From Pseudobdellovibrionaceae bacterium (GTDB lineage: Bacteria > Bdellovibrionota > Bdellovibrionia > Bdellovibrionales > Bdellovibrionaceae), in NCBI GenBank assembly GCA_039810425.1, contig JBDHWW010000077.1, forward strand, positions 1 to 10,739: a stretch of 10,739 nt of DNA, read 5' to 3'. Made by a program: the position numbers. Position 1 is the first letter of the stretch, and each line of letters starts with the position of its first letter. Below, one piece after another: positions 6,001 to 10,739 of the stretch.

Positions 6001-9000
6001 GGGGCGAGGTCCAATAATCTCTTTGAATAATTCATCGTAGGTAAACGGAGCACCCTCTTGATTATAAAACTCAGGTTTTCCAATAAGGAGACCTTTTATC
6101 TTCTCAAATACGCCGATGAATTTGAGCTGCTGAAGATGGCGCTCGGTTCGACTCAGAGGAGCTTCCATGTCTTCAAGAAGTAGGATTTTATCATGAAGAT
6201 CAGGCCAATAAGGTGTTCCCGCTGCAGACATCAGGGTGTTTAGATTCAAAGCTAAAATTTCTCCGCTGGCAACACCGGGATGAAGAGCTTTCCAGCCCTC
6301 ATTGTTCTGCCAATGGCGAGGCAGGTTTTTCCATTCGCCGTTAGACCAATCTCTCTTGTGATTGCTCCATCGAAGTGGAGGTGAGATTTTGCGAAATCCT
6401 TTGTTTGGCATAGTCACAGCATCCAGAAACCATTGTGTGCTTTCCTGAATTCCATTGGGCCATTCTCCAAACCAGCACATGACGCTGGGGCCGTATATTG
6501 TGCGTAAGCCAGAGAACTTCAAAATGGCAAGATGCAAAGATGTGATATCGCTGAATCCACAAATGAGTTTTCTTTGCTCACGTATTTTTTTAAAATCTAA
6601 AAATGGAATCAGACTCGAAGAGTTGTTACCACCAATAGTCGATATGAGCCCACTCACTTCGGGGTCTTCGATTAAAGACATAAACTCTTGCGCGCGCTCT
6701 TCTGGCGTACCAGAGCGATAACCTTGAGATTTACGAGCCTGCGTGAGGTCACCCAATTTAACTTTAAAACCAAGCTGCTCAAGATTTTTTACACCATTAA
6801 CAAAGAGTCCTTCATTCCAAGAATAGCCGGGGCTTGAGGGGGTGAATACACCGATGGTGTCGCCTCTTTTTAAGTGTTTGGGTGAGAGGATTGATATTGC
6901 CACAATTTAGGATGTCATAGGCCAAGGATTCATACAAGAACCCAAATAGGGAATCCTTAGAGATGCTTTCAAACCGGAGTTTTCTGCCGGCGGCAGAAAA
7001 CGACAACCCCCAAAATGTCGAAAAAAGCGGGAAACTTCAGAACCTACTCCGACGCAGTCGGAGTGCAGACAGCACAAATAAAAAAACCGCCAGAAGGGCG
7101 GTTGTTTTATTTGGATGGGATTGTGGCTTGGGGTGTAAGTATATGAATTAACTTGTGAAAATTATTTAATAGCTACAAAGCCTACAGGTATACTGTGTGA
7201 TCATGGAATGTTGGCTGGAAATCATTACAATTAAACTGGGTCGGTACCGAGGCTACGTTCTTCTTGTACCAGCTCAAAAAGCTCCTGTAGTGCAGGTTCA
7301 AGTGCGTCATAGCTATCGCCATATTCTAATACGTTAAAACCATATGCTTTTTTAAACATCTCTTTTTCTATAAAATTGTAAGAACCGTTTGTGCTCAGAA
7401 CATAGTGAGGAACCGTATTTTTTGAAATATTCTTAACTTCCTCTAGTATAAGAAGCACGTCAGGGTCATCCATTTTGCAACCTAAAAAAACAATGGTGTT
7501 GGTGAGGAACAGCGCTTTTAGAACTTCATAAAAATTCGGGTGATCACGCTTAGCCTCGTGGTATCCCGACATCGTAAAGATCATTTTATTCACTTCGTCT
7601 ATTGAACCGTGCGCTTTTAGTATGAGTCGGTTGTCAGATCTTATCTCCGTGACTAGATCTCCTGAATAATAGGTAATCACCTTATAGCCAGGATTATTGC
7701 CATGAGCACAGTATCGTTCGTAGATCTTGTCGAAATTAGTGGTAATCACTATTCTGGAATCAAGCTTAAGTATGGTTTCATGAATTTTGCTTGGGATATA
7801 TGCTTGCGTAAGATATTCTTCATCCAAGAAGCTTTTATACTCAGTCTCATCAGCATTCTTTTTAATCAGTTCCAATGCCAAAAGTAACTTATTTTCGTTG
7901 ACGTATTTAGCAACAAGATTTCTATCTTCGTTCGAAGCGAGAAGTTGTTTAGCTTCGAGGATAAATGACTTCCAGGTCTTTGGGGTTCTGCCTTCTGTGG
8001 TTTTAGATGTAGCTGAAACCCCGGATCCAAGAAAGAAAATTACACGTCGTGTGGAAATTTGTCTGATTAGACTCTTTGGCCAATCCACGTTATTTACCTA
8101 AATTGGTTAGCAATTTGAGAGTTAATTCCTTCAGTAAGTCATCATACTCGTCAATTTGACGATTCATGCTGCCAACGACTCCTTCCGTGCCCTTGAGCTT
8201 GTGAATTGGACAGTTATTCGATTGCGCTCTTGGGATTAGACTATAAACATAAGGGATATGGCCCAATTCTAAATCATCCGTATTTATATTTGGAGATATG
8301 AAATCCTTCATATATGCATTAACTGTTTGAGGAATCTCTTGCATGATTTCTTCATAAGCCTTAACGGGTCGCTTTCCTGCTTTGAATTTTCTAGTTACAT
8401 ACTGCTGAATAGAATAGCCAACGATTCTAAACTTTTTATTTGTATCCAGAACAATTTCGCCAGCATATTTGGAGAAGATAGAGGAATTTTCAGACTCCGC
8501 GTTTGCTTTGCGCTGCTGATAAAGCTTCTGCCATCGCAATATCCATTCGGAGATATTTTTAATCCCCAAAATACTGAATATATCACAACCCAATGGCGAA
8601 ACGATATTATCACTGCCTAGTAAAATAGTTCTATTTAGGGCTCCCAGGGAAGGGCCAACATCAAGGAAAATATAGTCGTACTGTGATCCATATAAGGTTA
8701 ATACTTGCGAGAGCCAGTTGGTTTGGCGGAACCCACCGATTCCAGCTCTTGAGAGATCTGCCCAGGCTTGACTGAGAACATCTTCAATTAGGGAGAGCTT
8801 TGGGTGTCCAGGTATTAGATCAATTTCAAAATTATTTTCGGTAGCTTTCACTGGGACAATAGTTTTGGATATAGTTGATTCTCCGACTAGGAAAGGATCA
8901 AAAATATCTAGCAAAGTCTGAAACTTTGGTGTTTTAGAAAAGTAAAGATCTTGAACTATGTCATCTGGTAAAATTGATTGAGTTGCATTACATTGTGGAT

Positions 9001-10739
9001 CTGCATCAATCAATAGAACTTTTTTTTTATGTGTTGTTGAAAGATAGGATGCAATGTTGCAACAAAGAGTGGTCTTTCCAACACCTCCCTTGTTATTAAA
9101 AAACACTATCGATTTCATTCAAGTTCCCCCTAGGAACAGCTCCACCGGTAAGAAATATATTCGGTTTAGTTTACAAGTGTTCACGGAGTTTCTCATTTAA
9201 GCAAGTTCCCACTGGAAGGAGAACCTGCTTATAGATCAAGGTCGGGAAGACGTTTTGCTTTTGAATTTAGCACTCTTTCAATCTGTGCTTTCTCAATGCG
9301 ATAGTTATCAACAGGTAATCCACTCTTGATACGCAGTTCGATCGCGCGATCAGTGAAAAGCGTATTGATGTTCTTGCGATATTTGGCAAGCAGCTCGCGT
9401 TCCATTTCAATCTCTTGGAAGCGGTTGAAGATTGGAGCGCACTCGCCAAGCTCAGTACCAACCCAACGACGCCCCTTCATTTCGGCCACAATGTAAGTTG
9501 TCCCAGAGCCGCCAAATGGATCGAAGACTAGGTCGCCCTCCCGGGTCGCAATATCCAAAACCCGGTCCAGTAAACGAATGCTGAGCTCATTAGCATCTCT
9601 ATTTTTGTACTTGGAGTGACGAACTGGTGGGATATCAGTCCAAACGTCGCGCAGGTTAAGACCTTCGGGATTCATTTTACTTTTATATCCACCATAGTCA
9701 TTCTGTTCCTGCCCGCATCGTACACACGTTTTTATGGGTGTTCTCGGCGGTGCAAAGTGATTAGGTCTGTCACCCTTTATGAAGTACAAAAGGCTGTAGT
9801 GTGAAGGGTATAGCTTGTTGGGAATTGGCATAGATGCAGTAATATCTACGGCAATCCAATTCTTAAACGTTAGCTGGCTATTTAGATAGTCAGCGATGTA
9901 GATCGACCACTTCGGAATGTTGTAAACAAAGATTGACCCACCGGGCTTTAATTTTTTAATGCACAGATCAAGCCACTGACGAGTCCATTCGATATAGTAC
10001 TCGTCTGGAACGTCATCAGACTTTGACCCCTCATAAGTTTTACGTAGATTGAATGGAGGATCCGCGAAGATGCAATCAAAAGTATCATCAGGGGTTGACT
10101 TCAAATAGGCCACGCAGTCACCTTGATAGAGCTTACCAAGCTTAGTCTCGAACTTTAGTAGTGGCTTTTTGTCGTTTGAGTGAATCTCATTGCGTAGAGC
10201 TTGGATATTGGCAATCTCTTTAACAAGATCCTCAGATGGAGATAGAAGCTGATTCAGAACTTCATCAGGAAGCTTTGAAAGATAGGATCTTAATCCTACG
10301 GACTTACCTGTTTTTTTAGGGGTGCGGCCAGTGCGGCTTTCCCAATTTTTTGCTTTTCCAGCCTTTATAGACATGGGACCTCGACTTTCTGATTGATTAA
10401 CATTTAGGTTCGGATGAAGTCATCTATTTATGTTGCTAAAGTACGTGCAAATTCTGATCCTTTTAATATGAAAATAGTAAGTAAATACTGGGTATTAGGT
10501 ACAGAATCCGGCCACTATAAAAACGCTTTGTCCGAGATTGACAACGCTATCGAAAAGACACGCATCGTCATTCAGCCTACAAAAAAGGCAAATGGGGTAA
10601 AGCCAATTAAGGTCGGCGTCATCGAACAGCTCAAAAAATCTGGGTGGTCCGACGAACATCCTATTGAACTGTTTTTTTAGGAGTGAGACGAATCTGATTT
10701 TTTTGGTTCGTCAGTTTGATTGTTAAACTTTTATACAGT

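Follow-up and report, generated by a model that had tools for sequence, protein, structure and literature searches.

SIR2-HerA (Nezha / Gao_Her), a two-gene system of prophage and satellite hotspots, consists of a HerA/FtsK hexameric translocase and a short SIR2-only NADase effector. In Thoeris ThsA, DSR2 and Avs5, the SIR2 domain is accompanied by a SLOG, tail-tube-sensing or STAND domain, and Thoeris further comprises the TIR protein ThsB and the SLOG/Macro sensor on ThsA. As for restriction-modification (R-M), the BamHI system (R.BamHI, M.BamHI and C.BamHI) has a controller gene, and in PrrC-EcoprrI an anticodon nuclease guards a type Ic R-M system; PrrC is masked by binding to the type I enzyme and is freed by a phage peptide. 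The gpA-gpQ locus of P2 is an anti-phage hotspot, according to Rousset et al. 2022 (PMC9122126).

In the window (the whole stretch of DNA analysed, 10,739 nt, from a Pseudobdellovibrionaceae bacterium), the four open reading frames (ORFs) that the survey's finding had placed side by side were all recovered: a SIR2_2 protein, predicted to be an NAD+ hydrolase effector (positions 7231-8088, minus strand; 285 aa, GTG start), a ParA/Soj-class deviant-Walker-A ATPase (8090-9118, minus strand; 342 aa, Pfam AAA_31), an N4/N6 DNA methyltransferase of the kind partnered with BamHI-family nucleases (9229-10374, minus strand; 381 aa), and a truncated BamHI-family restriction endonuclease gene (10414-10680, plus strand; 88 codons). 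The ATPase stop and the SIR2 start are parted by base 8089 alone, as had been noted, and the Pfam matches were reproduced (SIR2_2, 2.2e-23; AAA_31, 1.1e-34, with CbiA/ArsA; N6_N4_Mtase, 1.7e-36; BamHI, 1.9e-08), together with those in PADLOC (ThsA/Dsr2/Avs5, PDC-M28B and MTase_II). No PADLOC system spanned the ATPase-SIR2 pair, and neither PADLOC nor NCBIfam has a model for it.

Like SIR2-HerA, the pair combines an ATPase with a short SIR2-only protein; unlike it, the ATPase is of the ParA/Soj dimer type (AAA_31/CbiA), its gene comes first, and it has no PADLOC HerA match. The SIR2 domains of Thoeris ThsA, DSR2 and Avs5 are the closest to ours in profile and fold, with N/D/H kept, whereas the 285-aa protein is SIR2 only, without a SLOG, Macro, tail-tube-sensing or STAND domain, and ThsA profiles align with its SIR2 part alone; Pfam gave no TIR match, and so no ThsB, among the window ORFs scanned. 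Loci related to the window share with BamHI R-M the BamHI-family nuclease, the N4/N6 methylase and a small HTH_3 controller upstream of the nuclease, but no controller gene is present in the window, where the nuclease breaks off ahead of its catalytic residues. PrrC-EcoprrI likewise places an abortive-infection effector gene beside R-M genes; the R-M units beside the pair, however, are of type II instead of type I and fall into two unrelated families, and what links them to the pair is gene adjacency. Taken together, we think it rather probable that the locus represents an autonomous two-gene anti-phage module of an ATPase and a SIR2 NADase, which is tied to R-M in one lineage and whose neighbouring nuclease gene was broken by a repeat in this genome.

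The pair had been called undescribed, which is an overstatement, since Rousset et al. 2022 (PMC9122126) list it as #168 in their Table S5B. That system is a table entry with 10 occurrences and no R-M neighbour, and the E. coli ParA accession of P2-like prophages appears 27 times in Table S5A beside a SIR2_2 protein; the same P2 table also lists 'SIR2_2 + DUF87' (Rousset et al. 2022, PMC9122126). In the parts of that paper considered here, no sign was found that #168 had been cloned or tested: it is not in section 10, and the table of cloned systems (file 3) contains neither AAA_31 nor ParA. No paper testing the ATPase-SIR2 pair was found in our literature search. In the supplement text of PMC13069673, the E. 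coli pair accessions, 'ParA' and 'AAA_31' were all absent, and the six active systems of that work, Liu-DS1 to Liu-DS6 (DS1, DS2, DS4 and DS5 being described in the passages considered), differ from the pair.

By motif and by fold, the ATPase belongs to the ParA/Soj class. It has the deviant Walker A motif KGGxGK[ST] with the N-terminal signature lysine (FFNNKGGVGKTT); K10, G11, G12, G14, K15, T16, D38, D40 and D153 (Walker A, A' and Walker B) were invariant in 36 homologues, although the invariance of Walker A is partly owed to the N-terminal search pattern with which the sequences were collected. The best PDB match of the AF2 model (pLDDT 91) was 3pg5 (DIP2308 of Corynebacterium diphtheriae, an uncharacterised structural-genomics entry), which matched over the full length (E 5e-23, 31-32% identity, TM 0.71-0.81), and the next matches in Foldseek were Soj/ParA chains (E 5e-13 to 1e-10, TMt 0.65-0.81). 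PADLOC gave PDC-M28B alone (3.6e-05, residues 2-40). True membership of the ParA/Soj class, the NCBI label 'ParA family protein' of the ATPase relatives, and the putative partition systems reported for about a quarter of P2-like phages (Rousset et al. 2022, PMC9122126) would fit a function other than defence, in which the ATPase serves to partition or position a mobile element, SIR2 is a deacylase or regulator, and both ride on mobile islands. We regard such a function as highly improbable: the NCBIfam ParA_partition score was 51.5 bits against a cut-off of 180, no ParB-like or centromere-binding partner gene was found beside the ATPase, and the conserved neighbour is always SIR2, which lies downstream in 79 of the 80 metagenome loci and in all 10 genome loci. 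In addition, some chromosomes carry the pair as a two-gene insert that is not embedded in any element, and the SIR2 protein has its closest matches among NADase effectors rather than deacetylases.

The SIR2_2 domain scored 83.4 bits (Pfam cut-off, 24.5), and G21, G23, N118, D120 and H160, comprising the glycine-rich NAD loop and the predicted catalytic residues, were invariant across 32 homologues; N118/D120 and H160 presumably correspond to the Asn and His that are catalytic in ThsA. Both in sequence and in the fold of the AF2 model (pLDDT 91), the nearest solved proteins were the anti-phage NADases ThsA, DSR2, KomC and Avs5, and human FAM118B, and the PADLOC matches covered only the SIR2 parts of ThsA/Dsr2/Avs5. 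We infer from these matches that the protein is an NAD+ hydrolase.

The pairing of ATPase and SIR2 is obligate. The linkage described in the survey's finding was recovered in an independent collection of 80 metagenome loci obtained with a SIR2 profile search, the single locus that has no ATPase directly upstream (L077) having 278 nt of upstream sequence only. From the ATPase side, all 10 genome loci with an ATPase at least 37% identical have SIR2 directly downstream; the scan of genome contigs used single-protein patterns and yielded mostly generic ParA, and about 48 of its 71 loci were partial matches and were ignored. The pairwise distances of the ATPase are correlated with those of SIR2 (Mantel rho 0.85). 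The complex prediction for ATPase and SIR2, run without controls, gave a score of 0.00, which speaks neither for nor against binding. Three of the 10 genome loci (L004, L018 and L054) have split or fragmented copies, so some copies are decaying. Named hosts among the matches were Proteobacteria, Verrucomicrobiota and Acidobacteriota. In 10 of 13 loci with full-length ATPase relatives of 29-34% identity, a Schlafen/AlbA_2 + HATPase_c_4 partner is present upstream instead, and Table S5B of Rousset et al. 2022 (PMC9122126) also lists 'ParA/AAA_31 | RelA_SpoT' (#110). A modular family is thus suggested, in which one ATPase is combined with varied effectors (SIR2, Schlafen/AlbA_2 and RelA_SpoT).

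The surroundings of the pair agree with the defence function that had been proposed, as does the proximity of its SIR2 protein to anti-phage NADases. It was found in terminase-bearing prophages (L003, L004), by P2 gpA (L009), beside integrases (L002, L005) and in a T4SS element (L006), and as an isolated two-gene insert amid housekeeping genes (L142, L144, L149, L122 and L114). It is present in 12 of 5426 complete E. coli genomes; in the two genomes inspected, a P2-like prophage carries it with gpA/DinI on one side and portal Q on the other, that is, in the gpA-gpQ hotspot. At the DNA level, the E. coli pair and L009 are 69% identical, and the L009 ATPase is 39% identical to that of the window. 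Given that the pair stands alone amid housekeeping genes as well as in integrative elements and the P2 hotspot, we consider that it is probably an autonomous NADase module. A tblastn search with the SIR2 protein gave no match in 50,697 phage records; the pair is thus seen in prophages of bacterial genomes and has no match in this phage collection. In 40 relatives of the present genome, the pair was not found, the search giving three weak matches only (22-23% identity).

In such a module, the ParA/Soj-class ATPase, which would dimerise on ATP and whose relatives bind DNA non-specifically, may act as a sensor or regulator, and the translationally coupled SIR2 protein would be the effector: once triggered, its NAD+ hydrolysis would abort the infection. 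If the pair protects, ParA/Soj would be a third class of ATPase partnering SIR2 NADases, beside HerA and STAND. The cassette is small, is present in E. coli P2-like prophages, and is simple to clone and test.

The link of the pair to type II R-M had been presented as widespread, which holds in part. A BamHI-like unit (controller, nuclease and methylase) adjoins the pair in 19 of the 80 metagenome loci, with methylase homologues 46-57% identical; no methylase of this kind was found beside the pair in the 10 genome loci, so the association is not general. In one lineage, it is stronger than had been claimed, owing to a further R-M type unrelated to the first, in which a 730-aa methylase is combined with a 347-aa PD-ExK nuclease; this type was found in 10 of the 80 metagenome loci and fills most of the apparent gaps. 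Twenty-six of the 31 members of one clade have an R-M unit, where the lineage is that of a concatenated FastTree made without a topology test; each of the remaining members (L073, L075, L081, L089 and L093) has less than 4 kb of flank on at least one side, and every clade locus with enough flank has a unit. The reading of the R-M-linked loci as a strict clade was rejected, as it holds in the concatenated tree and fails in the SIR2-only midpoint-rooted tree, in which the window SIR2 is on a long branch. Since no such R-M is present in ten loci that are flanked by at least 4 kb on both sides, the pair does not need R-M. The metagenome contigs are short: in the SIR2 tree, 38 of the 57 loci without R-M fall below 4 kb on both flanks.

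In 28 of 30 loci, the gene directly next to the pair belongs to an R-M unit (an extra methylase in the case of L109), and the R-M-linked loci show at least eight different gene orders. In the window's lineage, the pair would always move with the adjoining type II R-M unit as a composite defence island of four to five genes. The survey's finding had proposed that the pair guards the restriction system, firing in the manner of PrrC once restriction is blocked. In a generalised form of this idea, which we regard as possible but doubtful, the pair would read the state or products of restriction (DNA ends or failed restriction) and then fire the NADase, the four to five genes being one system. The adjacency persists over about 50% protein divergence and through all these gene orders, with two unrelated R-M types serving as the neighbour and with no clade locus of sufficient flank lacking one, all of which would be expected from such coupling. 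Operon-like overlaps point the same way (X2 stop and ATPase start in L102; methylase end and ATPase ORF in L100 and L108), as do the order C-R-ATPase-SIR2 on one strand in L074, L105 and L110, and the correlation between methylase and pair distances, which is weak but above permutations (rho 0.38, p ~0.001). On the other hand, the pair, if working, works without R-M in the ten loci above, direct recognition of the nuclease is made less likely by the unrelatedness of the two nuclease families, the methylase tree conflicts with the pair tree in several places, and in the window the nuclease is truncated and the pair is intact. Moreover, defence genes gather in islands anyway and type II R-M stabilises linked DNA, so that hitch-hiking could mimic the pattern. 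Only tentatively do we consider that restriction in one lineage is a composite system with the pair as its second arm, which would answer cleaved DNA ends or escaped unmethylated DNA with NAD+ depletion. Such a role would account for the persistent attachment of the pair to R-M of two unrelated families despite many rearrangements. If so, it would be the first immune-sensor role for a ParA-class ATPase, and its wider family would constitute a new modular group of the sensor-effector type. That type II R-M of two unrelated families adjoins the pair in one lineage, whatever the gene order, also offers a natural test of whether abortive-infection modules are wired to restriction or hitch-hike with it.

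The endonuclease gene had been described as cut by the contig end; the ORF is in fact ended by an in-frame TAG at 10678-10680, 59 nt before the contig end. It covers only positions 29-78 of the 157 positions of the BamHI profile, and its true start is likely, by alignment, the ATG at 10468, because homologues align from residue 19. In the alignment with 16 homologues (most of them about 200-290 aa, three being cut by contig ends), the ORF ends ahead of the conserved GPxD and EWETGN blocks of the ~200-aa homologues, which we take to be the catalytic residues of the BamHI fold; the catalytic acidic residues (D ... ExE block) are not present in the window ORF, and all catalytic motifs are absent. 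Some of the related nucleases score equally for BglII (L074). The last 75 nt of the window (10665-10739, plus strand) recur with 100% identity at the 3' ends of C99 and C27, two other contigs of this genome; this multi-copy repeat end, which interrupts the endonuclease gene, is probably where an insertion sequence or another mobile element terminates. The remainder of the nuclease gene was found neither in the other frames of the window nor, with 17 family members as queries, in the rest of the assembly, where matches were at chance level. Contig C78, met in the same search, is a terminase region. With its restriction gene truncated, the window offers no complete R-M system that could be guarded.

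The methyltransferase looks sound (Pfam N6_N4_Mtase, 126.7 bits against a cut-off of 26.7; PADLOC MTase_II PDLC03238, 3.5e-125); its gene is on the same strand as that of the ATPase, 110 nt upstream. The retention of the methylase and the pair beside a broken nuclease gene, together with L108, an overlapping methylase-ATPase-SIR2 operon with no BamHI-family nuclease, could suggest a system that reads methylation, in which the methylase marks self, unmethylated DNA triggers ATPase-SIR2, and the NADase replaces cleavage, making the nuclease dispensable. This seems to us very unlikely, for L108 has another nuclease, RE_AlwI (3.3e-98), two genes upstream, the nuclease is retained in 17 of the 19 BamHI-type loci by tblastn (L091 having no room for one), neither Pfam nor structure comparison recognised a sequence- or methyl-reading domain in the ATPase, and the clades with no methylase would be autoimmune. 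Under the preferred reading of an autonomous module, the repeat would have broken the nuclease gene, and the methylase and the ATPase-SIR2 pair alone would be intact in this genome.

The G+C content is about 0.38-0.45 from about position 7000 rightward and 0.43-0.53 on the left side of the window, and the island is probably a low-G+C insert gained horizontally. Promoter and terminator scans gave counts at the level of shuffled sequences (for terminator-like sites in the region, 3 found against 3.0 expected), and the operon boundary was read from a single hairpin. This G+C-rich terminator-like hairpin (7085-7103; 7 pairs, 5 of them G-C, with T runs on both strands) lies 128 nt 3' of the SIR2 stop, close to the left boundary of the low-G+C island, and probably marks where the operon ends on its 3' side.

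The four genes that the survey had placed in the window were borne out by an ORF check, as minus-strand genes for a SIR2_2 protein (7231-8088; Pfam), a ParA-like ATPase (8090-9118; Pfam) and an N6_N4 methyltransferase (9229-10374; Pfam and PADLOC), and a plus-strand BamHI-family ORF (10414-10680; Pfam); its Pfam and PADLOC figures were also reproduced. A single base separates the stop codon of the ATPase gene from the GTG start of the SIR2 gene, and 128 nt beyond the stop codon of the SIR2 gene there is a hairpin with T runs (7085-7103). The G+C content falls to ~0.38-0.45 rightwards from ~7000, and the left 7 kb carries housekeeping genes (LD-carboxypeptidase, CvfB and MCRA hydratase). 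In this left flank, the genes for a DUF7453 protein (681-1865, minus strand) and an MCRA-family (oleate hydratase-like) protein (1944-3671, plus strand; E 8.9e-209) belong to the ordinary chromosome and have no relation to the island. A close homologue of the ATPase-SIR2 pair was absent from all 40 relatives of the window's genome (three weak matches, 22-23% identity), and the pair is therefore accessory DNA in this genome.

The endonuclease gene had been described as cut by the contig end. This was wrong: an in-frame TAG (10678-10680) terminates the ORF 59 nt before the end. The ORF covers only positions 29-78 of the 157 positions of the Pfam BamHI profile, and in the alignment with 16 homologues from related loci (most of ~200-290 aa, three cut by contig ends) it ends just short of the conserved GPxD and EWETGNISSSHR blocks, into which the homologues run on; a full-length relative in the metagenome locus L109 aligns to the entire profile (E 2.6e-66). 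No protein continuation was present in the remaining two frames of the window, and the rest of the gene was not found in the 149 contigs of the genome when 17 family members served as queries. Window positions 10665-10739, the final 75 nt, match with 100% identity the 75-nt termini of two further contigs from this genome, C99 (5898-5972) and C27 (38933-39007), in the same orientation at the contig 3' ends, and the preceding sequences are unrelated. This repeat probably represents one end of an insertion sequence of which the body is absent from the bin. The nuclease gene is thus broken at about codon 84 by a multi-copy repeat, most simply an insertion sequence end, which also accounts for the end of the assembly. 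The sharing of the repeat with C99 and C27 gives some support to the membership of the window's contig in the bin. The C99 copy sits just after a natural stop codon.

The ATPase and SIR2 genes form an obligate pair. In the ATPase search of genome_contigs (71 loci), an ATPase with 37% or more identity along its length was present in ten loci (L002-L009, L018 and L054), and a SIR2 homologue lay directly downstream in all ten. When metagenome_contigs was scanned with a 32-sequence SIR2 alignment, 336 stretches were confirmed; among the best 80 of these, the ATPase was directly upstream in 79, the exception being L077, where the contig leaves only 278 nt on that side. For the two proteins, pairwise distances are strongly correlated (Mantel rho 0.85, n = 17 loci). 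Each family is large: more than 120 ATPase clusters (E < 1e-109, ~50% identity) and 175 SIR2 clusters were found, many from named Proteobacteria. Split or fragmented copies of either gene were seen in three of the ten genome loci (L004, 11001-11877; L018, 10001-11007; L054, 10001-11410) and in L078, which suggests that the cassette decays often.

The SIR2 protein (285 aa) consists of the SIR2 domain only, with residues G21, G23, N118, D120 and H160 invariant in 32 sequences. Its model (pLDDT 91) and profile are nearest to ThsA, DSR2, KomC, Avs5 and human FAM118B, of which the prokaryotic matches are all anti-phage NADases. The ATPase (342 aa) has a deviant Walker A motif with the signature lysine (K10, K15), a DxDPQxN A' motif and the Walker B residue D153, all invariant in 36 sequences; its model (pLDDT 91) matches best the uncharacterised 3pg5 over the full length (31% identity), followed by Soj/ParA proteins. 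It is a protein of the ParA/Soj class, with a longer C-terminal half. In the operational sense, it does not belong to a partition system, because no ParB-like gene accompanies it at the loci examined and its score against the NCBIfam partition model is far under the cut-off.

Neighbours of the pair in the genome loci included terminases (L003, L004), a P2 gpA replication gene (L009), integrases (L002, L005), a conjugative T4SS coupling protein (L006) and transposases (L004, L054). The pair was found in 12 of 5426 complete Escherichia coli genomes; in both genomes inspected, it is flanked by gpA/DinI on one side and by the portal gene Q of a P2-like prophage on the other, and Rousset et al. 2022 (PMC9122126) describe precisely this gpA-gpQ interval as an anti-phage hotspot. 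Among metagenome loci from other clades, some carry the pair as an isolated insert of two genes among housekeeping genes (gyrA, enolase, cysS, glycosyltransferases), and in others it stands beside transposases or an OLD-family nuclease. These contexts point to a defence role and to autonomy. In the simplest reading, the pair would be an autonomous NADase-type abortive-infection module, in which the ParA-class ATPase would act as sensor or regulator, and one lineage of the pair would have settled permanently beside type II restriction-modification (R-M) units.

Homologues of the window methylase (46-57% identity) adjoin the pair in 19 of the best 80 metagenome loci and in none of the ten genome loci; the methylase link reported by the survey is thus present but not general. 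With this narrower scope and the correction of the nuclease end, the survey's observation is real. A BamHI-family nuclease accompanies the methylase in 16 of these 19 loci when scored by ORF clustering and in 17 when scored by tblastn; space for one is lacking in L091, and L108 has no BamHI-family nuclease but an AlwI-family nuclease two genes upstream. An HTH_3 controller-like gene (75-94 aa) occurs in 13 of 20 BamHI-type loci, a total in which the window is counted. In L108 (2183-8846), an AlwI-family nuclease, a Schlafen/AlbA_2-HATPase_c_4 protein, a BamHI-type methylase, the ATPase and SIR2 form a five-gene row on one strand.

Relatives that appeared free of R-M carry a second unit beside the pair, namely a ~730-aa methyltransferase (PADLOC matches to HmaB, PglX, DUF1156_MTase and MTase_II) and a ~347-aa protein without a match in Pfam, PADLOC or NCBIfam. 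The copies of the latter are 55-88% identical to each other and share an invariant PD...ExK motif. It is likely an uncatalogued family of type II restriction endonucleases, and the unit as a whole most likely constitutes a second R-M of type II. This type occurs in ten of the best 80 metagenome loci (among them L102, 3672-6947; L098, 9100-12331; L120, 9094-12319; L084, 2011-5239; and L083, L087, L101, L106 and L107), and both types together in 29 of the 80. A gene of the R-M unit immediately adjoins the pair in 28 of 30 loci, the window included (exceptions, L103 and L085), in at least eight arrangements of order and orientation; the BamHI-type unit is found on the upstream side of the pair in 11 loci and on the downstream side in nine. 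Several junctions are operon-like, for example in L102, where the X2 gene overlaps the ATPase gene. In L103 (3131-4979), a gene for a DndB-like protein separates the pair from the BamHI-type unit; in L109, counted among the 28, the immediate neighbour of the pair is an extra methylase, a second N6_N4 methyltransferase (2948-4294) that likewise separates it from the unit.

In a FastTree phylogeny of the concatenated ATPase and SIR2 sequences (69 loci in which each gene is nearly complete), the R-M-linked loci all fell in one of three large clades. Of the 31 members of this clade, 26 carry an R-M unit; the other five (L073, L075, L081, L089 and L093) are each short of 4 kb on at least one side. 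In the midpoint-rooted tree of SIR2 only, the R-M-linked loci were not monophyletic and the window SIR2 was on a long branch; the grouping as one lineage thus holds in the concatenated tree and not in the SIR2 tree. Neither R-M type is present in ten loci of the SIR2 tree that have flanks of at least 4 kb on each side, and all ten fall outside its R-M-linked groups. Methylase distances correlate weakly with those of the pair (rho 0.38, p ~0.001) and the trees differ in places; therefore, the R-M partner has been exchanged at times. In the simplest reading, the adjacency in this lineage is beyond chance and probably selected, and its basis may be synergy, co-regulation, co-mobilisation or stabilisation by the addictive R-M. 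The survey's proposal that the pair guards the R-M unit, firing when phage blocks restriction, may be one such basis, but direct guarding is disfavoured by several points: the R-M neighbours belong to two unrelated nuclease families, clades without R-M exist, and the nuclease of the window is broken. In a bolder variant, the pair would sense the methylation mark itself, which is consistent with the window and L108 but with little besides. The survey's interpretation is partly supported, and an autonomous module with an R-M-attached lineage is the reading that we prefer.

The survey regarded the pair as undescribed. The pair is already catalogued, as system #168 with 10 occurrences in Table S5B of Rousset et al. 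2022 (PMC9122126); however, no published test or discussion of a ParA and SIR2 system was found in the literature. The table of cloned systems of that paper (file 3) has no AAA_31 or ParA entry, and the systems that its text names as tested are others. In the domain-centric screen of NAR 2026, the pair is not among the six active systems (Liu-DS1 to Liu-DS6; passages on DS1, DS2, DS4 and DS5) or in the supplement text. The pair is a variant of the ATPase plus SIR2 kind. Our searches found no publication that describes its lineage-wide attachment to type II R-M units of two kinds.

Full-length relatives of the ATPase at 29-34% identity were found in 13 loci (L010-L023 without L018). A Schlafen/AlbA_2 plus HATPase_c_4 protein, ~400 aa where complete and often with a stop/start overlap with the ATPase gene, is encoded upstream in place of SIR2 in ten of them (L010, L012, L013, L016, L017 and L019-L023), and looks like a second effector of the same ATPase family. 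A 'ParA/AAA_31 | RelA_SpoT' system is #110 in Table S5B (PMC9122126; 29 occurrences), and this and entries in Table S1A of the same paper are possible further members of a family of ParA-like ATPases with effectors. In L011 (937-3566), an ATPase relative directly follows genes for a Cap15-like cyclic-dinucleotide receptor and a nucleotidyltransferase, in a CBASS-like neighbourhood.
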